This document shows positions 3,022-22,406 of a stretch of 22,406 nucleotides of DNA, piece by piece. The stretch lies in IMG/VR virus record IMGVR_UViG_2537562020_000008. One strand, written 5' to 3'. The notes below the pieces were generated by a model. That model was given only the letters and a program-made list of their open reading frames with translations, ran no database searches and was not told where the DNA came from. This DNA is from a virus (taxonomy: Duplodnaviria > Heunggongvirae > Uroviricota > Caudoviricetes). A program made the position numbers and the translations under genes. The stretch's first letter is position 1. Each line of letters begins with the position of its first letter.

Positions 3022-3959
3022 CCCCTGAATCCTGCCGGGATCTGGCTGTAGTCCACGTTGTCGTAACTGGCTTTGAAGTACGGGTCTTCGCGTTTTTCGG
3101 TGTACGTGCTGACGGACGGCGATAAGCGCAGGGAAAGCTCATCCCATTTTTCCCGCAGCTTCGACGGGCTGAGCACGTTACGGCACCAGAACGGATCGCG
3201 ACTGACGCGGCTGTACATCTCGCAGATTTGTTTATGAGTACGACCATCCTGCACACACATCAGGCGAATTTCGTTTGCCCAGGCTGTCCAGTTCGGTTCT
3301 TTGGGACGAACCACCTCGCCGTCACATTCGGCGGCCTGCTCGTACAGGGCGATGATTTTTTTCCAGAGCCACTGTGCGCAGGTCAAATCATCCTGCGTTC
3401 CCCACTGGCGCTTTTTAGGGCTGAATACAACCGCATCAGGATGGCGAGTTAAAAACTCCTGTTCAGCCGTCTGCGTGTCCGGTTGCGAAGCGTCCGGACG
3501 AGAAGTTTTTTTATCTGACGGATCATGTTTTGATTTTACTGACGGATCCCCGCCAGATTCTGACGGGTGAAAACCCGCTTTTTTGCCAGATTTCGACGCA
3601 TCAAATTTTGACGGGTCAGATTTTGATGCGTCAGATTTTGACGGGTCAGAATCTGACAGTTGAGAAAATGCCGCTGCCTGAAGCTTCGCAACGTTAAGCT
3701 GATAAACATTCGACGCATTGCGGTTACCCTGGCGACGCGCCTTACGCGTTAACCAGCCTTCTGCTTCCAGCCGTGCGATAGCCGTTCTGACGGTACTCAT
3801 CCCCGCGCCAATCTGACGGGCAATGGTTTCAATTGATGGCCAGCACACCCCTTCGTCATTACTGAAATCAGCCAGGCGGGCCATAATTGCCACGCTGGAT
3901 AATTTCATGCCTGACGCTGCGCAACCATCCCATACATAGCCGGTTAATTTAGTGCTCAT
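3018..3959 (-). CDS. Phage replication initiation protein (lambda O-like organiser: N-terminal HTH, repeat-rich linker, C-terminal domain)
   Basis: 313 aa; N-terminal HTH (WPSIETIARQIGAGMSTVRTAIARLEAEGWLTR); central repeats SDSDPSKSDASKSDPSKFDASKS encoded by the iteron DNA; sits downstream of cro and the CII-like gene as in lambdoid phages. Confidence 0.75.
   Translation of the reverse strand: MSTKLTGYVWDGCAASGMKLSSVAIMARLADFSNDEGVCWPSIETIARQIGAGMSTVRTAIARLEAEGWLTRKARRQGNRNASNVYQLNVAKLQAAAFSQLSDSDPSKSDASKSDPSKFDASKSGKKAGFHPSESGGDPSVKSKHDPSDKKTSRPDASQPDTQTAEQEFLTRHPDAVVFSPKKRQWGTQDDLTCAQWLWKKIIALYEQAAECDGEVVRPKEPNWTAWANEIRLMCVQDGRTHKQICEMYSRVSRDPFWCRNVLSPSKLREKWDELSLRLSPSVSTYTEKREDPYFKASYDNVDYSQIPAGFRG
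3513..3664. repeat. Iteron array (about 8 copies of a ~15-bp unit, core TGACGG/TGATGCG) inside the replication gene; putative phage origin
   Basis: Seen directly: attttgacgggtcag / attttgatgcgtcag / attttgacgggtcag / aatctgacagttgag in tandem at 3605..3664, with more degenerate copies at 3513..3604 and an A/T-rich stretch at about 3500..3512. Confidence 0.7.
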
Positions 3960-5205: not shown

Positions 5206-5898
5206 ATGAACATAGGAAACCGAGTCAGACAACTTCGCCAAGCGAAGAACATGAAAATCGCCGATCTCGCTGAAGCGATAGGAGTAGATGCGGCGAACAT
5301 CTCGCGCTTAGAAACGGGTAAGCAAAAACAATTTACCGAACAAACACTGAGTAATATTGCCAAGAGCTTAGGTGTTGATATTGCTGATCTCTTTACCTCT
5401 GCCCACAAAAGTAATACTGTATATAAAAACAGTAATAATGAGGATGTTGCGCAGGTGAAGGATGTGTTCCGTATTGAAATGCTGGATATCAGTGCCAGTG
5501 CGGGAAATGGCCTTATCCAGGGCGGTGATGTCATTGATGTGATTCATGCCATCGAATACAGAACTGATAATGCTGTATCAATGTTCGGCGGACGACCAGC
5601 CAATCACATCAAAGTTATCAACGTTCGTGGGGACAGTATGTGTCCAACCATTGAGCCCGGAGATCTCATCTTCGTTGATGTCAGCATCAATCAGTTTGAT
5701 GGTGATGGTATATATGTCTTTGGTTTTGATGACAAAATATACGTTAAAAGACTTCAAATGATTCCTGACAAACTGCTGGTGATTTCTGATAACCAGATTT
5801 ACCGTGAATGGGGAATTACTAGCGAAAACGAACACCGATTCATGGTCTTTGGAAAGGTCTTAATCAGTCAGTCGCAAACCCTTAAGAGACATAATTAA
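5206..5898 (+). CDS. cI: cI-like prophage repressor (N-terminal XRE HTH + C-terminal LexA-like S24 peptidase domain)
   Basis: 230 aa; HTH (MKIADLAEAIGVDAANISRLETGK) and C-terminal S24-type region (VRGDSMCPTIEPGDLIFVD ... IYVKRL). Confidence 0.9.
   Translation: MNIGNRVRQLRQAKNMKIADLAEAIGVDAANISRLETGKQKQFTEQTLSNIAKSLGVDIADLFTSAHKSNTVYKNSNNEDVAQVKDVFRIEMLDISASAGNGLIQGGDVIDVIHAIEYRTDNAVSMFGGRPANHIKVINVRGDSMCPTIEPGDLIFVDVSINQFDGDGIYVFGFDDKIYVKRLQMIPDKLLVISDNQIYREWGITSENEHRFMVFGKVLISQSQTLKRHN
5415..5434. promoter_or_regulatory. Near-consensus SOS (LexA) box embedded in the cI coding sequence
   Basis: Seen directly: TACTGTATATAAAAACAGTA versus consensus TACTGTATATATATACAGTA; CTGT-N8-ACAG core intact. 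Confidence 0.5.
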
Positions 5899-5917
5899 CC
5901 TCAATATCCCATCCATC

Positions 5918-5942
5918 GGCCACCGAAAGGTGGCTTTTTATT
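5918..5942 (+). terminator. Rho-independent terminator downstream of cI
   Basis: GGCCACC-gaaa-GGTGGC hairpin followed by TTTTTATT, 20 nt after the cI stop. Confidence 0.75.
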
Positions 5943-5952
5943 ACCTATAAAT

Positions 5953-5989
5953 TTGCATATCTCGCAAATATCACTTGCATGTCTCGCAA
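5953..5989. promoter_or_regulatory. OL-like operator pair (two 15-bp TTGC-N7-GCAA sites, 22 bp apart)
   Basis: Seen directly: ttgcatatctcgcaa (5953..5967) and ttgcatgtctcgcaa (5975..5989), same half-sites as the cro/cI intergenic sites. Confidence 0.55.
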
Positions 5990-6175
5990 TTTAATTTTAT
6001 CTTTTGTTCCAGACCAACTACAGGATTACAACAAAATCTGGTTGCAACACGGTGCATGTGTCGTAAGCAGTCAGTAAATGTCAAAAACGAACAGGCAGGA
6101 CGCCCACGAAGTAGCCGCCTGGGGCATATGAAGTCCAGGATGATTCGTTGAGTCATGTTGTGCCACTAGGCACTC

Positions 6176-6472
6176 ATGTTAAAGCAGGTGTATGAAATGA
6201 AAGTCCAGATTTTAAACAATAACTGTGAAGTCGTTTGGTCATACGACATAGCCGCCCCTGTAGATCAGAGCGGCGATAGCTGGACCAATGGGAAACATCA
6301 GATTATGGCTGGAGTTGTGTTCTCTTTACGCCGTGCTTTGGAACAGGCTGAAGTATTTCCATCAGACCCTGAATGGAAATGGCCTTTTTCTATTTGTCCA
6401 AATTCGGAGAGCACATTTCAGAAAATTGGTCAGAAAGTCGCACTCGAAGAGCATCAGCCAACTGTTTCCTGA
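6176..6472 (+). CDS. Hypothetical moron protein (possible start at 6196, MKVQILNN...)
   Basis: ORF downstream of the OL-like sites at the position occupied by rexAB/sieB in lambdoid phages. Its 3' end overlaps the convergent ORF by ~80 bp, so one of the two may be mis-called. Confidence 0.35.
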   Translation: MLKQVYEMKVQILNNNCEVVWSYDIAAPVDQSGDSWTNGKHQIMAGVVFSLRRALEQAEVFPSDPEWKWPFSICPNSESTFQKIGQKVALEEHQPTVS

Positions 6473-6635
6473 TTTTTTCAGGTAACTCGTCGGCATCGCA
6501 GAAACAACAACGCTCGATCATGTTGAAAGCCGATTCGTAGAACTGTTTCTGCTGAGTGTCGCTGAGACAGGAAAAGAGCGACGTTACGATGATTTTATTA
6601 ATTGCATTATCAAGTTCTTTTTCATCAAAAGTCAT
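6390..6635 (-). CDS. Hypothetical small Cys-containing protein (81 aa)
   Basis: Good RBS (aaaaggaaaatcaaATG); contains CCFC; no family recognised. Confidence 0.45.
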   Translation of the reverse strand: MTFDEKELDNAINKIIVTSLFSCLSDTQQKQFYESAFNMIERCCFCDADELPEKIRKQLADALRVRLSDQFSEMCSPNLDK

Positions 6636-7072
6636 TTGATTTTCCTTTTATGTATACGGGCTTAAAAGGATACCACCGAGCCTGAAGTGGTGAAAAGACA
6701 GGCACATAACAGCTAAGTATTTTCAACCAAAGAGAATCCTTAGCGTTGTGGTGAATGCGGCTCAGCGCACGCGGGTTAAGGTTGAGGCTGACAGTCGACC
6801 TTCTGTGGATACCCACCCGTCTGGTGTGCAACCTTCGCCAGGCACCGGGAGGCACCCGGCACCACAACTTTATGCTGTGTGTAGTCCTGGCGGTACCAGT
6901 TTGTACCCTTGCTTCCGGCTGGTACCGTCCTTTTTACAAAACAGAGAAGAGCATCACCGGACGACGGGCTCATAACCCAATCCATCCGGGCGGCTGCCAC
7001 CGCAGGTGTTCTTCTCTGTTTTGTGGAGAAACTAATCGGCCTTGCAGGGTCGATATGATGAGGAGCAGCAAA

Positions 7073-7447
7073 ATGGCTAGCGAACGCAGTACTGATGTAC
7101 AGGCATTTATCGGGGAGCTGGACGGCGGCGTATTTGAAACCAAAATCGGCGCAGTTCTCAGTGAAGTCGCTTCCGGTGTGATGAACAGGAGGGACAGCTG
7201 ATAGAAACAGAAGCCACTGGAGCACCTCAAAAACACCATCATACACTAAATCAGTAAGTTGGCAGCATCACCCAAACTCTCATATGTTCGCCCGACTAAC
7301 CGCGGGAAAATTTCCGAAGAAGACACCACCGAAACGCCGATGTATGTCAATCGCGGTGGTCGCCTGACTATTCTGCAGGAAGACCAGGGACAATTACTGA
7401 CTCTTGCCGGTGAACCTGACGGAAAACTCCGCGCAGCAGGTCATTAA
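7073..7447 (+). pseudogene. Prophage gene split by a ~90-bp IS1-end remnant (5' part 7073..7182, 3' part 7273..7447)
   Basis: RBS gaggagcagcaaaATG at 7073; 5' fragment MASERSTDVQAFIGELDGGVFETKIGAVLSEVASGV stops inside the IS1-derived segment; 3' fragment KLSYVRPTNRGKISEED...GKLRAAGH resumes in the same frame after it. Confidence 0.4.
7183..7272 (-). mobile_element. IS1 left-end remnant (IRL plus ~65 bp; the rest of IS1 absent)
   Basis: Reverse complement reads GGTGATGCTGCCAACTTACTGATTTAGTGTATGATGGTGTTTTTGAGGTGCTCCAGTGGCTTCTGTTTCTATCAGCTGTCCCTCCTGTTCA, matching the IS1 terminus and start of insA as I recall it; similarity ends near 7183. Confidence 0.8.
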
Positions 7448-7512
7448 TATCGTTCTTAATTAACTGATTATTTATCTCATCACTGAATATCTTTATATAG
7501 TGAGGACTTATT

Positions 7513-8337
7513 ATGTCTCAGAACTTAGACGCAACCGCAATTAATCAAATCCATGCCCTTATTTCTGCTCAGGGTGTTAATGAAATTATCAGTAAGATTG
7601 GTGCCGATGCTGTGGCATTGCCTGAGAATTTCCGCATTCATGATCTGGAAAAATTTAATTTAAATCGCTTCCGTTTCCGTGGTGCGCTTTCCACTGCCAG
7701 CATCGATGACTTTACCCGTTATTCTAAAGATCTTGCAGATGAAGGCACCCGCTGCTTTATCGATGCTGATAATATGCGAGCCGTCAGTGTGCTTAACCTG
7801 GGTACTATTGATGAACCAGGTCACGCAGATAACACCGCCACTCTCAAACTGAAAAAGACAGCACCGTTCTCTGCCCTGTTGTCTGTTAACGGCGAGCGTA
7901 ACTCCCAGAAGTCACTGGCAGAATGGATTGAAGACTGGGCCGACTACCTTGTGGGCTTTGATGCTAATGGTGACGCCATTCAGGCAACAAAAGCGGCTGC
8001 GGCGGTCCGTAAAATCACGATTGAAGCAAACCAGACCGCTGATTTTGAAGACAATGACTTCAGCGGCAAACGCTCTCTGATGGAGTCTGTCGAAGCGAAG
8101 ACCAAAGACATTATGCCAGTGGCATTTGAATTTAAATGCATTCCGTTTGAAGGTCTGAAAGAACGTCCGTTTAAATTACGCCTCAGCATTATCACTGGCG
8201 ATCGTCCGGTACTGGTTCTGCGCATTATTCAGCTGGAGGCGGTGCAGGAAGAAATGGCTAACGAATTTCGTGATCTGCTTGTTGAGAAATTCAAGGACAG
8301 CAAAGTAGAAACCTTTATTGGTACTTTCACCGCCTGA
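7513..8337 (+). CDS. yfdQ: YfdQ-like prophage protein (DUF2303 family)
   Basis: 274 aa, the length of the CPS-53 prophage protein YfdQ, and followed by YfdR/S/T-like genes in the same order. Confidence 0.7.
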
Positions 8338-9660: not shown

Positions 9661-10010
9661 TGGAGCCATACAGCCTCACACTCGATGAGGCCTGTCATTT
9701 TCTCAAGATATCCAGACCGACTGCCATTAACTGGATACGCACAGGGCGTCTTCAGGCAACACGCAAAGATCCCACTAAGAATAAATCTCCTTACCTCACA
9801 ACACGACAAGCCTGCATTGCGGCTCTTCAGTCTCCGCTGCATACTGTCCAGGTGAGCGCGGGTGATGGCATAACAGAGGAAAGAAAATGTCACTCTTCCG
9901 CAGAGGTGAAATATGGTACGCCAGTTTCACATTGCCGAACGGTAAAAGATTTAAACAGTCTCTTGGAACAAAGGACAAAAGGCAGGCGACAGAACTCCAT
10001 GACAAGCTAA
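9660..10010 (+). CDS. xis: Excisionase (P22 Xis-like HTH)
   Basis: [40 protein letters not shown]... matches the P22-type Xis pattern; start shares a nucleotide with the yfdT stop (TAATG); 3' end overlaps the int start. Confidence 0.75.
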
Positions 10011-11050
10011 AGGCTGAAGCATGGCGGGTCAGCAAACTTGGTGAAATACCTGATATAACGTTCGAGGAAGCGTGTGTCAGGTGGCTTGAAGAGAAAGCAC
10101 ATAAAAAATCACTGGACGATGACAAAAGCCGGATCGGATTCTGGCTTCAACATTTCGCAGGAATGCAACTAAGAGACATTACTGAATCAAAAATTTATTC
10201 AGCAATGCAGAAAATGACGAACCGGCGTCATGAGGAAAACTGGAAACTCAGGGCAGAAGCATGCAGAAAAAAAGGGAAACCTGTTCCAGAATACACGCCA
10301 AAACCAGCGTCCGTTGCAACGAAGGCTACGCATCTTTCATTTATAAAGGCCCTACTAAGAGCCGCAGAGCGTGAATGGAAAATGCTGGATAAGGCACCAA
10401 TTATTAAAGTGCCTCAACCAAAGAATAAACGGATCCGCTGGCTGGAGCCCCATGAAGCACAAAGGCTGATTGATGAATGTCCGGAGCCATTAAAGTCTGT
10501 TGTTGAATTTGCACTGGCAACAGGCTTAAGACGCTCGAACATCATCAACCTTGAATGGCAACAAATAGATATGCAGCGCCGGGTGGCATGGATAAACCCG
10601 GAAGAGAGTAAATCAAACCGCGCAATCGGCGTTGCGCTGAATGATACTGCATGTCGCGTTTTGAAAAAACAAATCGGGAATCATCACCGTTGGGTATTTG
10701 TGTACAAGGAAAGCTGTACCAAACCAGACGGAACGAAAGCGCCAACAGTAAGGAAGATGCGGTATGACGCAAACACAGCCTGGAAAGCAGCGCTGAGACG
10801 GGCTGGTATTGATGATTTCAGATTTCACGACTTGAGACACACCTGGGCAAGTTGGCTGGTTCAAGCCGGAGTCCCGTTGTCAGTGTTACAGGAAATGGGA
10901 GGCTGGGAGTCTATCGAAATGGTTCGTCGATATGCTCACCTTGCACCTAATCACCTTACCGAACACGCACGGCAAATAGACTCGATCCTGAACCCATCGG
11001 TCCCAAATTCGTCCCAGTCAAAAAATAAGGAAGGTACTAATGATGTGTAA
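9887..11050 (+). CDS. int: Tyrosine integrase, P22-type
   Basis: 387 aa; [47 protein letters not shown]... and C-terminal [41 protein letters not shown] (catalytic R..HxxR..Y); abuts a tRNA-Thr 3' fragment. Confidence 0.9.
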
Positions 11051-11064
11051 CTTATTGATTTAAA

Positions 11065-11113
11065 TGGTGCCGATAATAGGAGTCGAACCTACGACCTTCG
11101 CATTACGAATGCG
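11065..11113 (-). other. att core: 3' 49 nt of a tRNA-Thr (thrW-type, anticodon CGT) gene; the 5' half of the tRNA is not present here
   Basis: Reverse complement CGCATTCGTAATGCGAAGGTCGTAGGTTCGACTCCTATTATCGGCACCA equals the anticodon-loop-to-CCA segment of tRNA-Thr(CGT) as recalled; the sequence 5' of it is not tRNA-like. Confidence 0.8.
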
Positions 11114-11201
11114 TAAATTGATCTTGTAAAATCAATACCTATCGAATTTAAATGGATTTTTTGCCACAATATTGCCACAGTTCGTTAGGAATCAGACAGA
11201 A

Positions 11202-12275
11202 ATGGCGACTATACGCAAACGTGGTAACTACCAATGGGAAGCTCAAATCCGTAAACGTGGTTTTCCCTCTCAAACCAAAACCTTTAACACCAAAGTAGAA
11301 GCAGAAGCTTGGGCCAAAATGATCGAGTCAGAAATGGCGAGAGGAGTTTGGCTTAGCCGCAGCGAAGCGGAATCTACGACATTGTATGAAGCCCTAACGC
11401 GATATGAAAAAGAGATTGTTCCCGACAAAAAAGGGGCAGTGCAAGACCGATCATTGGTGCGGATACTAAAAGGCACTCAGCTGGCGAAAAACTATATGGC
11501 CAGCATCAGGAGTGCCGATGTCGCCAAGCTGAGAGATGAATGGTTGAAAATCTATGCTCCTGCAACCGTTTTAAGGCGTTTGGCCTTACTTTCTCATGTA
11601 TTCAATGTTTCGCGGAAAGAATGGGGCATGGAGAGCCTGCTGAACCCCGTAGAGGCCATTCGTAAACCCCAACCCAAGAACTCCAGGACCAGACGCCTAG
11701 AAGCGCTGCCTGTAGTTTCTGAGAAAACCGGTGTTACGTCAGGAAAGCAAATAGCCAACGAGATCGAACATATCATCGCCGCAACACATTCATTAGTATT
11801 GCCAGCAATCATTCTTCTGGCGTTAGAGACAGCCATGCGCCGTAGCGAAATCGCAGAGCTTCGATGGCGCTTTATCGATCTTGATCGGCGAGTTGCACAT
11901 CTGCCGGATACTAAGAATGGTAATGCCCGCGATGTCCCTTTATCAACGAAAGCCATTACGATACTGTCCAGTCTCAAGGAACATTCTAAGCCAGCTGCTG
12001 ATAAGGTTTTTGATATGCGTGCAGACGCGATTACCCGAGCTTTTGACCGAGCTGTAAAACGAGCCAGAGAACGATACGAGAAAACAAACTCATTATGTGA
12101 TGAATCTTTCCTTAAAGATTTAAGATTTCATGACCTTCGACATGAAGCAACTTCTCGACTTGCTGAAATTTTCCCTATGCATGAACTAACCAAAATTACA
12201 GGACATAAAGATCCAAGAATGCTAATGCGGTATTATCATCCAAAAGCTGAAGATTTGGCGTTAAAGTTGAAATAA
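11202..12275 (+). CDS. Second tyrosine recombinase/integrase (island integrase; a longer ORF begins at 11172)
   Basis: RBS AGGAA before the ATG at 11202; C-terminal LRFHDLRHEATSRL ... LMRYYH catalytic signature. Confidence 0.8.
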   Translation: MATIRKRGNYQWEAQIRKRGFPSQTKTFNTKVEAEAWAKMIESEMARGVWLSRSEAESTTLYEALTRYEKEIVPDKKGAVQDRSLVRILKGTQLAKNYMASIRSADVAKLRDEWLKIYAPATVLRRLALLSHVFNVSRKEWGMESLLNPVEAIRKPQPKNSRTRRLEALPVVSEKTGVTSGKQIANEIEHIIAATHSLVLPAIILLALETAMRRSEIAELRWRFIDLDRRVAHLPDTKNGNARDVPLSTKAITILSSLKEHSKPAADKVFDMRADAITRAFDRAVKRARERYEKTNSLCDESFLKDLRFHDLRHEATSRLAEIFPMHELTKITGHKDPRMLMRYYHPKAEDLALKLK

Positions 12276-13411: not shown

Positions 13412-13624
13412 CTAGTGAGCTATTTTATAGTCCCTTAATGCATTTTTAAGTAACTCCGTTTGCTCATCAGCATCATCATAATTATAAATTCCCGTAGCAG
13501 AATAATACTCTTCGATGCATAGAATATTTATCAATGGTTCACAAATCTCTTTAATAAAATCCTTGTTGTTATCGGCAAAAATAATTTTTATTCCTTCCAA
13601 AACAAAGCTATTATAATCAGCCAT
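13412..13624 (-). CDS. Hypothetical small acidic protein (70 aa)
   Basis: Strong RBS (AGGAGGTGGATAATG); acidic composition; no family recognised. Confidence 0.55.
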   Translation of the reverse strand: MADYNSFVLEGIKIIFADNNKDFIKEICEPLINILCIEEYYSATGIYNYDDADEQTELLKNALRDYKIAH

Positions 13625-13693
13625 TATCCACCTCCTTACAGGTGTTTAGTGGAAGCGTCAGTTAACGTTACCGCGCTAACTGACGCGCCTAAA

Positions 13694-15097
13694 TCAAGAT
13701 TTTTTACTGCCAGTTAAACTATCACCCTCAAACTCATCCTGTTCGTGGTTAGTCTGACGATCGGCTGTGTGTTTACGTATTTGATTCGCTATTTCCCCAC
13801 CAACGGTCTGTTGTCTTCGGATAGTATTAGTACTTCCCTTCATCATCTGATACTCCGAAGCTCCGTTAGACAGCCCGCTCGCCATGTGAGAAGCCATGCG
13901 GCCAGCTCGTGAGAATGATGAAGCAAACCCCTGGCTTCCTCCGCTGACGCTACCTGTATTACTCCCTGCAGAAGAACCACCGGAACCGCCTGATGGTTGT
14001 CCTCCAGAAGTATCTACGGAACCGGTATCTTCCCCTCCGCCAAATCCTCCACCTGAACCACCTTTATCACCAGAACCAGATTCTTCGGCCATCGCCGCTT
14101 GTGCAGATTCAAATGCTGCTTTTAGAGCGGAAGCACCACCACTGACTTGAGCTGTAGCACTTATTGCCATTGCCCCAGCGCCACTGATTGCAGTAGTAGC
14201 AGCGCCAGTAATCATACCTGCTCCAAAACCACCGATCCCTTGTAAGGACGCTCCTCCAACAACGCCTGATAACAACAACGGTAATTTATTCGTCAATACT
14301 AAAAGAATAATTGACGCCAGAAGTAAAACAATAAGACTATTAAGATCAGGAATATCATTTTTAATAATAGAAAAATACTGATCTATAAATGATTGCCCAA
14401 TCCCAATGATTAATGTCATCGTAAATAACTGAATACCAATCGATAATACTGTGCGTAAGTAATTTATTGCTATATCAGAAGTCCATTTCGAGCCACCAAA
14501 CCCAAGCAAAATAACTCCTGCATAACACAACACCCATGCAGAAACTAACATTATTAGCATATTTATCGCGATAAGCGCCATTACTACTAATACTATTATC
14601 GCGACGGTTATCATAATGGTCGAAATCATTGGAGACCAAATTGATGCTGCTGAACTGACCTTTGTTAATATCACAAATGCCATATCCACTATGCTGGAGG
14701 GTGAAATACCAGTACTTGTTCCTAAAGCATTTGCTGCAAGTTGTCTCATTGAGTTAATTATAGATTGTGATATGGCTGGGCCGTTGATTAAAAGATAATA
14801 AAAAAAACCAATCACGGCAAAAAAACGAACTATTTCTGCAAGTGCACTGATTAAACCTTCCCCTTGCATCGCCAACATACCAAATGTCCAAACCATACTT
14901 ATTAATACCAACCCCCAGAAGAGCCAATTTGCATAATCACCAATTACTAATGACCATGTGCTGGCTACTTGCTGAAACTTATCTAATAACGTATCAAGTA
15001 ATCCGCTACTATCTAATTGACCAGCATAAGCATTTACAGAAAACAAAAAAAACATTCCTAAAAAAGTGAGCTTGCTTACTATTCTCATAATTACCAT
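13694..15097 (-). CDS. trbL: TrbL/VirB6-like type IV secretion protein (polytopic, Gly/Ser-rich C-terminal tail)
   Basis: 467 aa; multiple TM segments then a low-complexity tail (GSGGGFGGGEDTGSVDTSGGQPSGGSGGSS); directly follows trbJ and a trbK-like ORF, as in P-type Tra2 clusters. Alternative start at 15088. Confidence 0.75.
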   Translation of the reverse strand: MVIMRIVSKLTFLGMFFLFSVNAYAGQLDSSGLLDTLLDKFQQVASTWSLVIGDYANWLFWGLVLISMVWTFGMLAMQGEGLISALAEIVRFFAVIGFFYYLLINGPAISQSIINSMRQLAANALGTSTGISPSSIVDMAFVILTKVSSAASIWSPMISTIMITVAIIVLVVMALIAINMLIMLVSAWVLCYAGVILLGFGGSKWTSDIAINYLRTVLSIGIQLFTMTLIIGIGQSFIDQYFSIIKNDIPDLNSLIVLLLASIILLVLTNKLPLLLSGVVGGASLQGIGGFGAGMITGAATTAISGAGAMAISATAQVSGGASALKAAFESAQAAMAEESGSGDKGGSGGGFGGGEDTGSVDTSGGQPSGGSGGSSAGSNTGSVSGGSQGFASSFSRAGRMASHMASGLSNGASEYQMMKGSTNTIRRQQTVGGEIANQIRKHTADRQTNHEQDEFEGDSLTGSKKS

Positions 15098-15264
15098 TCT
15101 CGCTTAGGGCTAGGATTGTTATTGCCACGCAGGGCACATTTATCGTAGTTATGTTCGTTCAATTTATTCTCTGGCGTCGATAAACAATCTTCATCTTTTT
15201 TATCGCAAGAGCATAGAATTAATGAAATTATTAGAATAAAAATGACCAAAAGTTTATCTTTCAT
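15091..15264 (-). CDS. trbK: TrbK-like small lipoprotein (entry exclusion), 57 aa; below the ORF-track size cutoff
   Basis: Own translation: MKDKLLVIFILIISLILCSCDKKDEDCLSTPENKLNEHNYDKCALRGNNNPSPKREW; signal peptide with lipobox-like LCSC; lies between trbJ and trbL. Confidence 0.5.
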   Translation of the reverse strand: MKDKLLVIFILIISLILCSCDKKDEDCLSTPENKLNEHNYDKCALRGNNNPSPKREW

Positions 15265-15275
15265 TCAGCTCTCCC

Positions 15276-16070
15276 TCACCAAATTCGCTTCGGGCTTGGT
15301 GTGTTCTCGCCAGCTAACGCTTTTTCATCAGCGACTATTTGTTGGGCTTCTTTATCAGCCTCAGCCTGTGCCAGTGTTGCTGCAGCGTTTTGCTGAGCTA
15401 CCAGAAGCGAGCGGATTTGCAGCAACTGGTTCGTTTGAGCACTGGCAAGCTGGTTAGCGGCCTGAATAGCTTCCATTTGCCCTTGTGCGCCGGTTGCCTG
15501 CGTTTGCAAATCTGCAAGGTTGTCAGCATCGCTTTGCAGTGTTTCCTGCTGTTCGTCAAGAGCCTTAAATACAGCGTCATTGGCCTTTTTACGTGCCTCA
15601 GAGCTGTTCTGTTCAGCTTTGCGCAGTGCGCTAATTTCATCCGCAGTACATTCAACATTACTGTTAAAGCACGGTGATGAGCGGTAGTAATTCACGTCCT
15701 GATAACGTTTCAGATATGAATCAAGACTCCCGGCCTGGTTTTTGTAGTAATTTAGGGTGTCCTGCGCCTGCAACAATTTGTTGATGGTCGAATTGGCCTG
15801 ATCCCAGATATAGGCTGCAGGTGCGACTGTATTTTTGAGCATGTTTTCATACTGCTGCAGCTGCGTCTGGTACTGCTGGATCTGTTTTGCCACAGCCTGA
15901 ACGTTGTTGACTGCGCTGATTGTGGTCTGCACCACATTAGTACCATCGATTACAGGGATACCGGCTGTCGCCGGTAATGCCATGATGGACGCCAGGAAGG
16001 AAGCAGCTAATGATTTTTTAGCTGCTAAAATCCCTCTCAGTGATGAAAATACTCGGAGCATTAACTTCAT
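15276..16070 (-). CDS. trbJ: TrbJ/VirB5-like type IV secretion protein
   Basis: Signal peptide then GIPVIDGTNVVQTTISAVNNVQAVAKQIQQYQTQLQQYENMLKNT, matching the TrbJ signature as recalled; Gln-rich coiled-coil C-terminus. Confidence 0.8.
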   Translation of the reverse strand: MKLMLRVFSSLRGILAAKKSLAASFLASIMALPATAGIPVIDGTNVVQTTISAVNNVQAVAKQIQQYQTQLQQYENMLKNTVAPAAYIWDQANSTINKLLQAQDTLNYYKNQAGSLDSYLKRYQDVNYYRSSPCFNSNVECTADEISALRKAEQNSSEARKKANDAVFKALDEQQETLQSDADNLADLQTQATGAQGQMEAIQAANQLASAQTNQLLQIRSLLVAQQNAAATLAQAEADKEAQQIVADEKALAGENTPSPKRIW

Positions 16071-16151: not shown

Positions 16152-16517
16152 TTATTTATTCAAGATTCTATCCATAATATTTCTTAGTTCTTGTCTGGTT
16201 GATTCTATTTTAGCAAGCAACGTTTTTATCAATGAGGGTGAAAAATCAACTGTGCGTGGATCGTTAGCTAACCACAGTTTAAGTAACCCACCAAGTCGAC
16301 CAAGATCAGCATTTACTCGGCTAAGCTCTACAACCTGTTCAATATCTACCATAGACTCAACCTGATAACCCATTGCTACTTTACGAATGAAACTCGCTAC
16401 ACTTAAGCCGGATGCTTCTGCATTATCCTGGATTTGCGCTTTTTCATCTGGCAAACAATAAACTTTAATTGGTGTACTATTTTTTCTAGTCTGAGAAACG
16501 GTCATATCATTCTCCAT
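16152..16517 (-). CDS. mobC: MobC-like relaxosome accessory protein (ribbon-helix-helix)
   Basis: 121 aa; RHH-like N-terminus (KVYCLPDEKAQIQDNAEASGLSVASFIRKVAMG) and DLGRLGGLLKLWL resembling the MobC-family conserved segment. Confidence 0.55.
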   Translation of the reverse strand: MENDMTVSQTRKNSTPIKVYCLPDEKAQIQDNAEASGLSVASFIRKVAMGYQVESMVDIEQVVELSRVNADLGRLGGLLKLWLANDPRTVDFSPSLIKTLLAKIESTRQELRNIMDRILNK

Positions 16518-16584
16518 ACAGGCGGTAGCCGATCAGCCTCGCAGAGCAGGACTCCGTTGAGCAGCTCAGCTGCGAATAAGGGAA

Positions 16585-16635
16585 GGTAAAGTAGAAGCAC
16601 CGTTTACGGTGGGCCTACTTTACATATCCTGCCCT
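16585..16635. other. oriT-like site: 9-bp inverted repeat around an inner palindrome, followed by a MOBP-type nick motif ATCCTGC
   Basis: Seen directly: GTAAAGTAG-aagcaccgtttacggtgggc-CTACTTTAC then acatATCCTGCcc at 16626..16632; lies ~70 bp upstream of mobC. Confidence 0.4.
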
Positions 16636-16787
16636 ACATTTGCCGTTGTGAATCTGTGTACGTATTGTGTATTTCTGTGTACTCAGTGTGTTTTCCTAAA
16701 GCATTTGTGCAGGATTAGTAGTGTAAAAATGTGCAGCATATGTGTTTATTGGAATGGAAATTATTTGAATGCCCCTAAGAGATATTT

Positions 16788-17081
16788 TTATTCTCGCGGC
16801 TTGGGTTTTGGCGGCCTGCCACGTTTCCTTTGACATCTATTTATCTCTTTCGCTATATCGTCATTTTCTGTCTTTGACTCAACAGATTTATCTATCCAGT
16901 CCTTAACATCTTCTCTACGCCAGAGAAGACGTTTATTACCGGGAAGACGGCATCTTGGTGGAAGACATTTTGGATTTCGCGTTGCATCACTGCGGATACT
17001 TTTTACAGTTTTCTTTAATGCAAAAGCCAACTCTTCAACGGTTATAAGTTCTGGCATAACTGATTTCATCGAAGAACCCAT
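16788..17081 (-). CDS. Excisionase/AlpA-like HTH DNA-binding protein with basic AT-hook-like tail
   Basis: 97 aa; LITVEELAFALKKTVKSIRSDATRNPKCLPPRCRLPGNKRLLWRREDVKDWI is an AlpA/Xis-type HTH pattern; C-terminal RKRGRPPKPKPRE. Confidence 0.55.
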   Translation of the reverse strand: MGSSMKSVMPELITVEELAFALKKTVKSIRSDATRNPKCLPPRCRLPGNKRLLWRREDVKDWIDKSVESKTENDDIAKEINRCQRKRGRPPKPKPRE

Positions 17082-17103
17082 CTCTCAGTAGAAATTTGAG
17101 GAT

Positions 17104-17131
17104 TTTAGCGGCTAAAATTTTAGCCGCTAAA
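17104..17131. promoter_or_regulatory. Perfect 28-bp palindrome just upstream of the excisionase-like gene (operator or bidirectional hairpin)
   Basis: Seen directly: TTTAGCGGCTAAAA|TTTTAGCCGCTAAA. Confidence 0.45.
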
Positions 17132-17382
17132 GTTTGCTAACCAACGTTATGAATTGAGAATAATTAAAACTTACTGGCAAAAAGAATAATGTCAACAGGG
17201 TTTTTATTCATCGGATTCTTACTCCATATGAAATTGGTTTTATTGACCGATTTCTGAATGACACTAAGGTTTTAATAATTCCTTTAATCTTTTTGGTTAT
17301 ATAAAAGGTTAAAGATCAGGTTAGAGAGGTGTGGAAAAGCGATATATTCACTTGTTTACTATGACAATTTTAAATTATATCC

Positions 17383-17448
17383 GTACCTCAAATGTCATGA
17401 AAGCGTACCTCATATGTCATAAAGGCGTACCTCATATGTCATATAATA
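17383..17448. repeat. Three tandem copies of a 22-bp unit (GTACCTCATATGTCAT core)
   Basis: Seen directly: gtacctcaaatgtcatgaaagc / gtacctcatatgtcataaaggc / gtacctcatatgtcatataata. Confidence 0.85.
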
Positions 17449-17528
17449 AAAAATAAGCAAACAAGTTATACACAATATTATTAACAGAATCTGTGGATAA
17501 ATACACAGATTATACATGATAAAATAGA

Positions 17529-17734
17529 TTGTTTAGCTAAACTAAATAACAATAAATAAAATGAAACAAAATGTAAATAACAGGGGGGGTGTAGGTGACT
17601 TATAAATTTGGTTAGCTAACCTTTATAAGAAACACTGTTTGTAAATGATTCATTTCTGACAACGGATATATCGAATTTGAGTAAGAAAAACACTTCAACT
17701 AACCTTACTCTCTGATTTGTTTAGCTAAACAAAT
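17529..17734. promoter_or_regulatory. Three palindromes with a shared TTAGCTAA core upstream of the HigA-like gene (putative operators)
   Basis: Seen directly: ttgtttagctaaac (17529..17542), ggttagctaacc (17610..17621), atttgtttagctaaacaaat (17715..17734, perfect 20 bp). Confidence 0.5.
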
Positions 17735-17775
17735 TACTGTAAGGAATCCGATGACGTTAAAAAAAAGGGGGGGAT

Positions 17776-18033
17776 ATGAGGACAATAAATGCTGCACCTT
17801 CAACTGTCGGAGAGATTTTATACGAAGAATTCTTGAAACCATTGGATATGCCTCCCGCAAGACTTGCTGAACTGATGGATACATCATATGAAAAAATTTG
17901 GGAAATAATTAAAAATGAGCGAAATATAACTCTTGAAGAAGCTATTCAACTCTCGATAATTTTCAATACAGATGCATCTTTTTGGGTGAAACTGCAAGAG
18001 CTACATGAGGCATGGTTTAATAAACAAAAGTAA
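17776..18033 (+). CDS. HigA-like HTH (XRE-family antitoxin-type) regulator, no cognate toxin ORF detected
   Basis: 85 aa; VGEILYEEFLKPLDMPPARLAELMDTSYEKIWEIIKNERNITLEEAIQLSIIFNTDASFWVKLQ matches the HigA/VapI pattern; preceded by an A8G7 homopolymer pair. Confidence 0.65.
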   Translation: MRTINAAPSTVGEILYEEFLKPLDMPPARLAELMDTSYEKIWEIIKNERNITLEEAIQLSIIFNTDASFWVKLQELHEAWFNKQK

Positions 18034-18688: not shown

Positions 18689-19951
18689 TCAAATTTTCTT
18701 TTTAGCGATAAAAATACAGTAAAAATATAAGGTTTTGATAATGTGATTAATGCTGTGCACCTCGCGAAATAATAGTAATAGCTTCCTCATAAAAGACATG
18801 AAACTAAGTTCGTTGTATTTAGTGCGTTCCATTCCTTCCTTAGCGAAATAGTAGGTTATCATCTGAATTGACTCTTTATATTCATATTTATAATGTGCAA
18901 TGCCATTTCGCAGCTTGTTGTCTAAAGCATTGAGATCAACTATATAAAAGCTATCATCCAATCCGCTTATTTTCGTGCCTAAATCAACGTTTGCATATTC
19001 GTTGAGACTAGAAAAACCTTTAATTAAATCGCCTTTTTTATTTAGTCTTACTGAATCGTCAAAAATATTATGATCTCCGCGTTTTAATAAGTTATTCAAT
19101 CCGGCCACAATTATTAATTGCCGAGAGAATACTTCAGATAAGTCTTTGTAAAAATTGTTACAGTCATCAAATTCGGCAGTTGAAACTCGAGCAGGAATCA
19201 TTGATAAATCTACGTTTTTATCATAATCATAGTAAAGCGCTGGGCGTGAAGGGAGTTCAAAGTCAAGCATTTTGGGATATAGGCTTAAACAATCGAAATG
19301 CAAACTTTTCAGAAACCCACTTCCAATAATATCATCTAAAAATTTATTTAGCTGTTTTGGATGATTTTTCTGAATATAATGAAGAAATTGTGGCATTTTT
19401 TCACTAATTTCAGCATTATGTGCATGTATTGTAAAGGGAAATGACATTGCAGAGGTTGCTGTATAAAGTGCGGAAAGGATATCTTGTATTTTTAGCGAAC
19501 GAGGTTTTTTCAGAGTAGGTAATTCTTTCATTAGGTTACTGAAAGTATTGTAATTTCCTTGTTTGTATTGAGTAATGAGTCGCTGGAGCTTATCGCGATG
19601 TTTATAAATATAATTCATTCCATTTAGATGTGCGTTCAGCATTAAGTATTTTTCATGACCTATTGCACTTGTTATTTTTAAGAATGCTGTTTTTCCTTTT
19701 TCGTATTTTCCAAAGCCTACGGGAAAATCTAAATGCAAATCGATGAATGGATTTGTTGTGCCAAAGTCATTGCTTTCTACAGTTTCCGCACCGTTAAATA
19801 CAGGCTCTCCCTCCCCAAGAGTAAACGATATATTATTCTCACAATTTGGACATGCAAATTGGAACGGTTGTATGTCTCGATTAGACATACCTATTCTTGT
19901 ATCAATGACCGTGTCACATACAAGGCATTTAAATTGCTGTAAAAAATTCAT
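18689..19951 (-). CDS. Uncharacterised 420-aa protein: N-terminal CxxC...CxxC zinc ribbon and C-terminal R-N-x3-H (HEPN-type) motif
   Basis: C9/C12 and C34/C37 (CLVC ... CPNC); RNGIAH at aa 348..353; strongly AT-rich codon usage; no family recognised. Confidence 0.6.
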   Translation of the reverse strand: MNFLQQFKCLVCDTVIDTRIGMSNRDIQPFQFACPNCENNISFTLGEGEPVFNGAETVESNDFGTTNPFIDLHLDFPVGFGKYEKGKTAFLKITSAIGHEKYLMLNAHLNGMNYIYKHRDKLQRLITQYKQGNYNTFSNLMKELPTLKKPRSLKIQDILSALYTATSAMSFPFTIHAHNAEISEKMPQFLHYIQKNHPKQLNKFLDDIIGSGFLKSLHFDCLSLYPKMLDFELPSRPALYYDYDKNVDLSMIPARVSTAEFDDCNNFYKDLSEVFSRQLIIVAGLNNLLKRGDHNIFDDSVRLNKKGDLIKGFSSLNEYANVDLGTKISGLDDSFYIVDLNALDNKLRNGIAHYKYEYKESIQMITYYFAKEGMERTKYNELSFMSFMRKLLLLFREVHSINHIIKTLYFYCIFIAKKKI

Positions 19952-20198: not shown

Positions 20199-20726
20199 TT
20201 AACAATTTGTAGTCTTTCCGACCAAATTACCGCGCGCAGTGTGACCCCATACTTTAGAGGTCACCTTATCTCTTTCCACTAGTTGTTTACGGTGCATCAA
20301 ATCGGCAAGCAGTATTGAAACAAAGAACATGAATTTTGTTTTGGGAGTATTAGGAACATCTTTGGGTCCAAGCCAAGGTAGCTGCTCCAGTTGATTTTGT
20401 ATTTTGGGTGTTGCGAAGCTAACACCATTCCAACTATGCCCAAAAGCATTTCTAATGCTACGCAGTGTGTTTAGTTCTTTGTATTCGTGTTCCATTATCA
20501 GTCCTAACGCATATGCTAAGCCTGTTCTAGCAGCAAAAGATGATAAAGGCGCTGTTGCACCATTCAGTAGACCTTTAGCTACTTTGTCATTTAACAGGTG
20601 AGCCTGGATGATCTCGGATAACCACTCATCGAAAATGGATGCTGCTATTAGAACAGAGCCACGATCTGATTCTTTATTTAGTTCGGACAAAAATTGACCG
20701 AGTTCAATTTGGGTTTTATCACTCAC
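20199..20726 (-). CDS. Uncharacterised 175-aa alpha-helical protein with R-N-x3-H (HEPN-type) motif; by-eye resemblance to MtlR/DUF4145-like domains
   Basis: RNAFGH at aa 92..97 in ...LAYALGLIMEHEYKELNTLRSIRNAFGHSW; by-eye resemblance to the MtlR helical domain. Confidence 0.55.
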   Translation of the reverse strand: MSDKTQIELGQFLSELNKESDRGSVLIAASIFDEWLSEIIQAHLLNDKVAKGLLNGATAPLSSFAARTGLAYALGLIMEHEYKELNTLRSIRNAFGHSWNGVSFATPKIQNQLEQLPWLGPKDVPNTPKTKFMFFVSILLADLMHRKQLVERDKVTSKVWGHTARGNLVGKTTNC

Positions 20727-21240: not shown

Positions 21241-21918
21241 TTACATGTAGATATTCATTAAACTGTCAAATAGTCTTTTGGTTAACTCTTTTTCCGCTCG
21301 TGCTTCGATTTGAGCCATACCATTTCGGAAGAGTTTTAATTTACCGCTAAATTCTTGGTCATGAATAGTACATGTCAATCGATCAAGTCTCATTTTTTTG
21401 TGAATAAGCTCATCTTTGAAATATTTTTTAAGATCGCTGGTACTATTAATTTGCATCTTGGCAAGAGCAAATTCAGCAACTTGAATTTGAGATACATCTA
21501 GTTGCACTATATTAAGTGTCAACTCTGTGTTTAAAGAACTGAACCATATGAACGGGTCAATCTCAATCTCTTCTAAGCTGGTACCAAGACCAAGGTTTTT
21601 TACCAGTGCCTGAGCAAATGGTTTAAGTGTTCTCGGTGGATTATCAATAAGTAAAACTGGGGTGTATTGTTCGTCAAAACTGAAAGATGTTACTCTATAT
21701 TCAATGCGTTCAACAGCGGTACTGTTGCCGTATAGATTACTTATTCTATCTTCGCTAATTATCTTTTCGATGAAGCGAGCGTGAAAATGAGATGTTCGTG
21801 ATTTATCAAATATAAACCCTTTCCCTTTCTCTTCAGTAAAAGGATCACGCATGAGTTTTTCAACTGTTTCACTAGTAGTGAAACGATTGTTGAGTTTAAT
21901 CCATTTAAATTTTTTCAT
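21241..21918 (-). CDS. Hypothetical protein (225 aa), unknown function
   Basis: Long ORF with AT-rich codon usage; 4-nt gap to the upstream small ORF suggests an operon; no family recognised. Confidence 0.55.
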   Translation of the reverse strand: MKKFKWIKLNNRFTTSETVEKLMRDPFTEEKGKGFIFDKSRTSHFHARFIEKIISEDRISNLYGNSTAVERIEYRVTSFSFDEQYTPVLLIDNPPRTLKPFAQALVKNLGLGTSLEEIEIDPFIWFSSLNTELTLNIVQLDVSQIQVAEFALAKMQINSTSDLKKYFKDELIHKKMRLDRLTCTIHDQEFSGKLKLFRNGMAQIEARAEKELTKRLFDSLMNIYM

Positions 21919-22125: not shown

Positions 22126-22406
22126 GGTAGTGACTCCAACTTACTGATAGTGTTTTATGTTCAGATAATGCCCGATGACCTTGTCATGCAGCTCCACCGA
22201 TTTTGAGAACGACAGTGACTTCCGTCCCAGCCTTGCCAGATGTTGTCTCAGATTCAGATTATGTCGCTCAATGCGCTGAGTGTAACGCTTGCTGATAACG
22301 TGCAGCTTTCCCTTCAGGCGTGATTCATACAGCGGCCAGCCATCCGTCATCCATACCACGACCTCAAAGGCCGACAGCAGGCTCAGAAGACGCGCCAGTG
22401 TGGCCA
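22126..22406 (-). mobile_element. IS1 (right-end inverted repeat at 22126..22148; element continues beyond window end)
   Basis: Terminus GGTAGTGACTCCAACTTACTGAT matches the IS1 IR as recalled, followed by insB coding sequence. Confidence 0.9.
22141..22406 (-). CDS. insB: IS1 transposase InsB, C-terminal part (5' end outside window)
   Basis: ...[71 protein letters not shown] matches the IS1 InsB C-terminus. Confidence 0.9.

Follow-up and report, generated by a model that had tools for sequence, protein, structure and literature searches.

IncP-1-type iterons and Kor operators without their cognate genes in a chromosomal island of Escherichia coli at thrW

The stretch of DNA analysed here (IMG/VR record IMGVR_UViG_2537562020_000008; 22,406 nucleotides in full, referred to below as the window) is part of the Escherichia coli chromosome, and a 2-kb test segment of it is 100% identical to strain E1316. 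From position 11066 to past its right end the window is occupied by an island inserted at the tRNA-Thr gene thrW, adjoining proA, with its other end at thrW beyond position 22406. Within this island a 694-bp spacer (17082-17775) separates the gene for a 97-residue DNA-binding protein from a divergent gene for a HigA-like protein. It is very probable that this spacer is a compact set of cis-acting sites derived from IncP-1 plasmids, combining a helper-dependent origin that has no replicase gene of its own (rep-less) with a module of Kor operators, in an island that lacks the cognate proteins. The spacer and its two flanking genes present the following features, from left to right; features with no assigned strand are given by coordinates alone.

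16788 to 17081, minus strand: gene for the 97-residue DNA-binding protein, predicted Xis/AlpA (MerR-like winged-helix) fold, C-terminal KRGRPxK tail.
17104 to 17116: O_B (KorB operator), copy a, TTTAGCGGCTAAA, in full agreement with the IncP-1 consensus TTTAGC(G/C)GCTAAA.
17119 to 17131: KorB operator O_B copy b, TTTAGCCGCTAAA, perfect match, 15 bp centre to centre from copy a.
17168 to 17195, minus strand: candidate promoter P2 of the 97-residue protein gene, TTGACA (17190-17195), 16-nt spacer and TAAGTT (17168-17173), read from the sequence.
17293 to 17340: A+T-rich block in which GGTTA occurs three times at 12-bp spacing, with GGTTAGAGAGGTGTGGAAAAG after it, candidate DNA-unwinding element.
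17382 to 17397, 17404 to 17419 and 17426 to 17441, minus strand: three TrfA-type iterons with 16-bp cores TGACAT(A/T)TGAGGTACG, 22-bp period.
17466 to 17474, plus strand: DnaA box TTATACACA, one mismatch.
17492 to 17500, minus strand: DnaA box TTATCCACA, perfect, inverted relative to the box at 17466-17474.
17531 to 17542: KorA operator O_A copy 1, GTTTAGCTAAAC, exact match, 11 of 12 columns invariant across variants.
17549 to 17577, minus strand: candidate promoter P1, TTTACA, 17-nt spacer and TATTGT, directed toward the origin and the 97-residue protein gene, from a consensus scan.
17610 to 17621: O_A-like variant palindrome GGTTAGCTAACC, two mismatches to O_A, uncertain ligand.
17664 to 17675, minus strand: invariant block TTCGATATATCC, 12 of 12 columns invariant in eight variants, Serratia included.
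17719 to 17730: KorA operator O_A copy 2, GTTTAGCTAAAC, exact match, 46 bp upstream of the HigA-like gene.
17776 to 18033, plus strand: gene for an orphan HigA-family helix-turn-helix (HTH) protein, divergent from the 97-residue protein gene (TIGR02607, E = 2e-18).

A preliminary description of the window had drawn attention to a perfect 28-bp palindrome and three 22-bp tandem repeats beside a gene that it called AlpA/Xis-like, and both features are real, correctly placed and far beyond chance. The palindrome, TTTAGCGGCTAAAATTTTAGCCGCTAAA (17104-17131), stops 22 bp before the ATG (17081, minus strand) with which the 97-residue open reading frame (ORF) begins, and about 8e-5 perfect palindromes of this length would be expected in 22.4 kb at uniform base composition (22,400 x 4^-14). 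Its make-up, TTTAGCGGCTAAA-AT-TTTAGCCGCTAAA, is that of two abutting copies of O_B, the 13-bp palindrome recognised in IncP-1 plasmids by the consensus TTTAGC(G/C)GCTAAA (PMC2680271, PMC11790492, PMC3614916). O_B copies occur in all island variants examined, with each 13-mer consensus or near-consensus. In some of these variants the central bases of the two O_B copies are non-complementary, as with C and C in L007, L008 and L011, such that the 28-bp palindrome is imperfect and the 13-mers are consensus; in others one copy carries a single mismatch, and no compensatory changes were seen. That the long palindrome is broken while the 13-mers are kept implies selection on two operators, rather than on a 28-bp palindrome or an RNA hairpin. 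The palindrome is as such a pair of operators for KorB, a ParB-family protein, and binding of KorB to it is predicted.

The 22-bp tandem copies (17382-17403, 17404-17425 and 17426-17447) are 82-86% identical to the first copy (TRF score 103) and share on the minus strand a 16-bp core, TGACATATGAGGTACG, that occurs three times in the window with at most one mismatch. By chance, 0.09 matches to this core would be expected at up to three mismatches, and none of 100 shuffles gave three matches. A sensitive blastn search with the spacer matched IncP-1-like conjugative plasmids of 41-74 kb from Enterobacteriaceae, at four to six places in each. In one of them, pEC187_3, the matched places lie at the position of oriV, with a klcA-like antirestriction gene on one side and trfA on the other, and form an array of seven copies at 22-bp spacing with two more beside trfA. 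The island cores are identical to those of this 7+2 array, which bears out the proposal, made only as an alternative in the preliminary description, that the repeats are iterons. The three copies are also direct repeats of TGACAnnTGAGGnnC at the 22-23 bp period by which IncP-1 iterons are defined, the RK2 iteron being TGACACTTGAGGGGC at a spacing of 22-23 bp (PMC3614916, PMC3273809). The first suggestion of that description, that the repeats are recombination directionality factor or integrase arm-type sites, does not hold, as the same 16-mer array is present on plasmids with neither the 97-residue protein nor the island integrase: tblastn found the 97-residue protein in only three plasmid records (Pseudomonas, Polaromonas), none of them IncP-like with the 16-mer.

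The resemblance to a plasmid origin extends to both sides of the repeats. The GGTTA block aligns with, and is homologous to, the repeat region left of the pEC187_3 oriV iterons; blastn of 17307-17440 against pEC187_3 gave 78%, and 25 of the 33 columns of the block are invariant across eight island variants. The oriV of pEC187_3 has TTATCCACA and TGTGGATAA on the same side of its iterons as the DnaA boxes of the island, so that in the island, too, iterons stand between DnaA boxes and an A+T-rich repeat flank. Judged by sequence and layout, the repeats, GGTTA block and DnaA boxes together are a shortened IncP-type oriV without trfA.

The cognate genes are absent. Plasmid pEC187_3 encodes TrfA, KorA, IncC, KorB and TrbA and carries 12 O_B (nine of them perfect) and two O_A. 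When plasmid proteins were compared by tblastn with the window and three sister islands (L004, L007 and L013), TraJ (58-76% identity), TrbJ (75-89%) and TrbL (51-61%) were found, and no match was obtained in any of the four for TrfA, KorA, KorB, IncC, TrbA or TraI; nor was TrfA detected in two further loci (L018 and L019). With korB missing from the same replicon, KorB binding would have to act in trans. Nucleotide homology to pEC187_3 is confined to four segments, trbJ (88%), trbL (69%), traJ-oriT (67%) and oriV (78-90%), and the order in which the island carries them is absent from the plasmid. No free plasmid form of the island was found in PLSDB, where no record covers at least 80% of the query.

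Two further kinds of site, the KorA-operator palindromes and the DnaA boxes, lie near the repeats and were missed by the preliminary description. O_A is a 12-bp palindrome, GTTTAGCTAAAC (PMC2680271, PMC11790492), and the O_A sites lie 90-290 bp to the right of the 22-bp repeats; the related GGTTAGCTAACC palindrome is kept in E. coli and Enterobacter variants. Between the origin and the HigA-like gene the two exact O_A copies, and probably other operator-like blocks, overlie candidate promoters. The TTGACA of P2 is present in all eight aligned variants, Serratia included, and the O_B pair falls at roughly +30 to +58 from the predicted start of P2, that is, in the leader. O_A copy 1 is at about +1 to +12 of candidate P1, which is a weak match, and the block TTATTTACATTTTGTTTCATTTT in the P1 region is conserved in all variants. 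A weak rightward candidate assigned by hand, TTGCTA/GAGAAT, abuts O_B copy b. The trfA promoter of pEC187_3 is laid out as O_B, TTGACT, 17 nt and TAAACT within O_A; in the korAp/trfAp pattern O_B is about 32-33 bp away and O_A overlaps the -10 element, and in the island the O_B pair is 400-600 bp from O_A. The invariant block TTCGATATATCC is similar to TTCGTTATATC motifs found in two TrbA-type promoter regions of pEC187_3, that of trbB and the traK-traJ region, and may be a TrbA-operator-like site.

This set of sites is conserved across genera, and selectively so. Two Enterobacter species and Serratia marcescens, as well as E. coli variants whose spacer identity falls to about 70-78%, all show the same succession of an O_B pair, the TTGACA promoter, the GGTTA block, three iterons, a DnaA box and O_A. 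Mean identity among eight aligned variants is 0.88-1.00 for the sites, 0.78 for the remaining spacer and 0.70 for the iteron spacers, a contrast that is a footprint and not a formal test, as the eight variants are related. The iteron type itself differs among islands, being GGTACG, GGGGC or mixed; the GGTACG type matches pEC187_3 and the GGGGC type matches p14EC001a and RK2. One E. coli island (L009, 1790-1890) has four GGGGC-type iterons where the present island has three of GGTACG type, with a flank nearly identical to the p14EC001a oriV (L006, 4950-5110), which suggests recombination or exchange between island and helper origins.

Related islands in other taxa indicate where such a system may have come from. 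A TrfA-family (PF07042) gene directly follows the homologue of the 97-residue protein in about 35 of 80 genome loci from other taxa, betaproteobacterial relatives of the island among them, the TrfA-family protein of a Burkholderia island being 28% identical to plasmid TrfA. In a Thiobacillus locus (L016, 10001-11380) a 23-bp x 4.7 tandem array follows trfA, and no comparable array was detected in the Burkholderia locus (L015, Burkholderia sp. Cy-637, 5863-8060), where the element immediately follows dnaA-dnaN-gyrB and carries a perfect O_B where its traJ-like gene ends. IncP-type iteron triplets are limited to enterobacterial islands without trfA, and none was found in 78 non-Enterobacter loci. 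Across the island superfamily as a whole, 45 perfect O_B sites occur in 26 of 80 loci (984 kb), where about 0.03 would be expected. It is likely that an ancestral island had its own trfA-type replicon, and that the lineage in Enterobacterales lost this gene and now carries the origin of its helper.

The remainder of the island contains an integrase, a set of plasmid-like transfer genes with an oriT, and cargo. The features of its left part are as follows.

11066 to 11114, minus strand: att direct repeat at the island left end, a copy of the 3' ~50 nt of thrW, by alignment with thrW of the 100%-identical E. coli locus.
11172 to 12275, plus strand: island tyrosine integrase (Pfam PF00589).
13694 to 15097, minus strand: trbL, island ORF, intact.
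15091 to 15264, minus strand: trbK-like 57-residue lipoprotein ORF, intact, weak below-cutoff NCBIfam lipoprotein signal.
15276 to 16070, minus strand: trbJ, island ORF, intact.
16017 to 16029: O_B-like TTTAGCTGCTAAA with central T, inside the 5' end of trbJ; in the trbJ of pEC187_3 the corresponding place holds a perfect O_B.
16152 to 16517, minus strand: traJ, oriT-binding relaxosome protein, NikA-like (Pfam PF21983), intact, 70% amino acid identity to pEC187_3 TraJ.
16579 to 16634: IncP-type oriT, inverted repeat 16579-16603/16606-16630 and nick-region motif ATCCTGC at 16626-16632, homologous to the plasmid traJ-oriT.

The 57-residue ORF has the size and position of the trbK entry-exclusion gene of pEC187_3 and is too diverged for tblastn. 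Rfam places a traJ-II RNA (RF01760, 93 bits) at 16535-16634, where it coincides with the oriT inverted repeat and nick motif, and this RNA family may in truth be a DNA oriT. Beside oriT there is a TGTGT-rich tandem repeat (21 bp x 2.1, 16653-16695) that resembles the TGTGTATTT repeats of the plasmid traK-traJ spacer. Just downstream of trbL, PtaRNA1, an antisense antitoxin RNA, was called at 13618-13690 on the plus strand (RF01811, 48.6 bits, just above the gathering score); it abuts and faces the 5' end of a 70-residue ORF (13412-13624, minus strand), which could be its toxin.

The preliminary description had also supposed that the palindrome and repeats might mark an attachment or regulatory region. 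A regulatory role agrees with the operators, while attachment does not, the att repeat being at 11066-11114, about 6.3 kb from the repeats. ARAGORN called no tRNA in the window. A 112-nt 'tRNA-Ser' annotated in RefSeq relatives beside the integrase, in the gap separating two integrase genes (window 11051-11171; L001 14967-15078) equals the thrW 3' duplication and is probably an annotation artefact. The label AlpA/Xis-like for the 97-residue protein is reasonable at the level of predicted fold. No significant family was found for it in Pfam or NCBIfam, HTH_17 being sub-threshold at E = 0.22, and the AlphaFold model (15 homologues) is a small winged helix with pLDDT 82-87 over residues 11-60, for which Foldseek ranks BldC, the RdfS excisionase and Pukovnik Xis highest, at weak E-values (0.04-0.1; probability about 0.99). 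Homologues at 45-58% identity are common in Beta- and Gammaproteobacteria.

To the right of the HigA-like gene lie cargo ORFs with no or only weak family matches: 18689-19951 (minus strand; 420 residues, zinc-ribbon-like with two N-terminal CxxC pairs), 20199-20726 (minus strand; 175 residues, MtlR-like) and 21241-21918 (minus strand; 225 residues). They occupy the slot that holds defence systems in sister islands, and from about 22141 the island is broken by a copy of IS1. At this insertion site the sister islands differ in their defence systems, among which are Hachiman, retron and ABC-three-component systems. A 15-bp tandem repeat with no relation to the island, CAGATTTTGACGGGT x 4.3, is found at 3587-3650 in the adjoining prophage-like region (yfdP-T/ymfL-type genes, integrase 9887-11050).

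The identity of the sites in the spacer is secure, and we strongly infer that proteins of a helper plasmid use them. As to how, we tentatively propose, with confidence not far short of even, that the island is a rep-less integrated satellite of IncP-1 plasmids, in which the island's own trfA-family replicon has been replaced by the oriV of the helper, and which borrows TrfA as initiator, KorA as global repressor and KorB as a clamp and centromere protein of ParB type at the double O_B. On the reading of the spacer given at the outset, TrfA of an IncP-1-like helper such as pEC187_3 would bind the three iterons and, with DnaA, open the adjacent A+T-rich block, such that the excised island could replicate and amplify, or be maintained, with no replicase of its own. 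Helper KorB would load at the double O_B, a borrowed centromere with IncC being one option; alternatively, KorB could act as a sliding clamp that depends on CTP and that KorA, bound to O_A 400-600 bp away, locks so that promoters there are silenced, a mechanism shown for RK2 (PMC11790492). In either case KorB and KorA would tie the control promoters of the island, those of the 97-residue protein and HigA-like genes, to the kor circuit of the plasmid, and the island TraJ and oriT together with TrbJ, TrbK and TrbL would exploit the relaxase and mating apparatus of the helper. The predicted direction of regulation is that of the plasmid itself: because KorA and KorB repress, the island control genes would be expected to burst in a Kor-free cell, for example just after transfer, and to be damped once a helper is established. 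More widely, Kor operators, present in 26 of the 80 loci, could be the means by which IncP-dependent integrative and mobilizable elements (IMEs), namely PIMEs, GIsul2 and the IncP island, sense a helper and synchronise with it.

Several observations weigh against reading the spacer as a helper-dependent origin with Kor operators. The island has only three iterons, compared with 7+2 in pEC187_3, and fewer GGTTA repeats, and RK2 fragments used experimentally carry five iterons. There is no G+C-rich segment beside the A+T-rich block of the island as there is in the plasmid origin. With so few iterons and no such segment, origin activity of the island is unproven. The promoter assignments are weak consensus matches, and a promoter consensus scan gave three matches compared with 8.0 in shuffles, that is, fewer than chance. 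Simple repression by KorA and KorB does not explain the helper-induced excision reported for PIMEs. As to co-residence with a helper, the spacer query, which GGGGC-type plasmids would escape, matched 134 records in 134 genomes of the E. coli collection, never two records in one genome, and so showed no case of it; a 2-kb query matched 159 records in 158 genomes, such that one genome may hold both island and helper.

The same sites could instead act against the helper, with the iterons titrating or handcuffing TrfA and the O_B copies competing for KorB and IncC, so as to reduce an incoming IncP plasmid in copy number or in stability. We regard this as rather unlikely, although it has precedents: iterons in trans inhibit RK2 replication by handcuffing (PMC5397158), the parS mimics of SGI1 destabilise its IncC helper, and a replicating PIME reduces amplification of pB10. 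The defence cargo of the sister islands is likewise in keeping with such a role. However, iterons alone would suffice for it, and yet the GGTTA block and DnaA boxes are kept and are among the best-conserved parts of the spacer; furthermore, one chromosomal copy of three iterons would be a weak titrator. Action against the helper is in any case compatible with the reading of the spacer as a helper-dependent origin, as replication of the excised island could give rise to both. It is improbable that the sites are functionless remains of an IncP-1 plasmid that inserted at thrW in the past and then decayed. Homology to pEC187_3 in four segments, and the lack of most plasmid genes, would be expected of such a remnant, but the segments are in an order not found on the plasmid and lie within an integrase-bounded element with tRNA-derived direct repeats. 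Decay is also difficult to reconcile with a layout that persists in diverged lineages of three genera with sites conserved above background, with iteron types that have been exchanged to match other plasmids, and with traJ, trbJ, the trbK-like gene and trbL as intact ORFs.

Very little credence can be given to readings in which the sites serve the island's own products, be it the repeats binding its excisionase-type protein or integrase, or the palindromes acting as operators of its own HTH proteins or as an RNA hairpin in a 5' leader. Proteins with the Xis/BldC-like fold of the 97-residue protein do bind direct repeats, and HigA-type proteins bind palindromes, but the same sequences are present as oriV iterons and 12 O_B on plasmids without the island proteins, and about 6 kb separates the sites from the att repeat. 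The palindrome could fold as a 12-bp RNA hairpin (minimum free energy of the 88-nt leader -24.9 kcal/mol, z = -4.5); no U-tract follows this hairpin, however, and it is the long palindrome that variants break without compensation and the 13-mers that they keep.

Resistance genes are spread to a major extent by IncP-1 plasmids, vectors of broad host range, on which, according to a recent preprint, a large family of chromosomal islands depends, many of them rich in phage-defence systems (bioRxiv 10.64898/2026.01.12.698999). IncP-dependent IMEs are already known; what appears to be new here is a rep-less lineage with helper-type iterons and Kor operators. GIsul2 and the IncP island (Brucella, Burkholderia) have been reviewed as such elements (PMC5704250), and a PIME preprint of January 2026 demonstrated IncP-induced excision, replication and transfer experimentally for PIME1 elements, which have their own repA/repC and oriV; the search for PIMEs required a replicase, and the inducer, that is, how the islands sense the helper, was stated to be unknown (bioRxiv 10.64898/2026.01.12.698999). 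That preprint makes no mention of KorA, KorB, Kor operators or TrfA (bioRxiv 10.64898/2026.01.12.698999), the IME review makes none of oriV or iterons (PMC5704250), and in the literature searched, the coverage of which was incomplete, no description was found of an integrative element with Kor operators or helper-type iterons. For one lineage, the present locus offers a testable answer, with exact sites for TrfA, KorB and KorA and none of the genes. If the sites do work, this integrative element leaves the supply of its replication initiator to the helper and is of a kind that searches requiring a replicase will miss; it would also be a natural target on the chromosome for silencing by KorA and the KorB sliding clamp. 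Incompatibility effects on the helper are a further prediction from the sites, one of relevance to strategies for plasmid curing.

The island can be compared with three groups of known systems. With the oriV and kor regulon of IncP-1 plasmids (RK2/RP4; pEC187_3, NZ_CP061111.1; p14EC001a, NZ_CP024128.1) it shares O_B, O_A, the iteron core and the 22-bp period, as well as the side on which the DnaA boxes lie, the A+T-rich flank, the O_B at the trbJ 5' end and an IncP-type oriT with traJ. Unlike these plasmids, it is chromosomal, is bounded by an integrase and tRNA repeats, and is without trfA, korA, korB, incC and trbA; in comparison with pEC187_3 it has three iterons, no G+C-rich segment, reshuffled segments, and an O_B pair abutting at 15 bp centre to centre, an arrangement not seen on that plasmid. 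With PIMEs, GIsul2 and the IncP island it has in common an integrase, an alpA-type regulator, traJ with an IncP-like oriT, trbJ-trbK-trbL, a large cargo of defence genes and a predicted IncP helper. In contrast to this island, which has no replicase and has the iterons of the helper instead, those elements have their own replicase and oriV, and the PIME1 pair characterised in the preprint is at guaA rather than thrW. The closest functional parallel is SGI1, with its mimicry of the IncC parS. Like this island, SGI1 is a chromosomal mobilizable element with two copies of the ParB-binding site of its helper; it depends on the helper for replication and substitutes components of its own for some of those in the helper's mating apparatus. 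The rep and oriV of SGI1 are its own, under the AcaCD activator of the helper, whereas here the initiator itself would be borrowed, and the borrowed regulators KorA and KorB, unlike AcaCD, are repressors.

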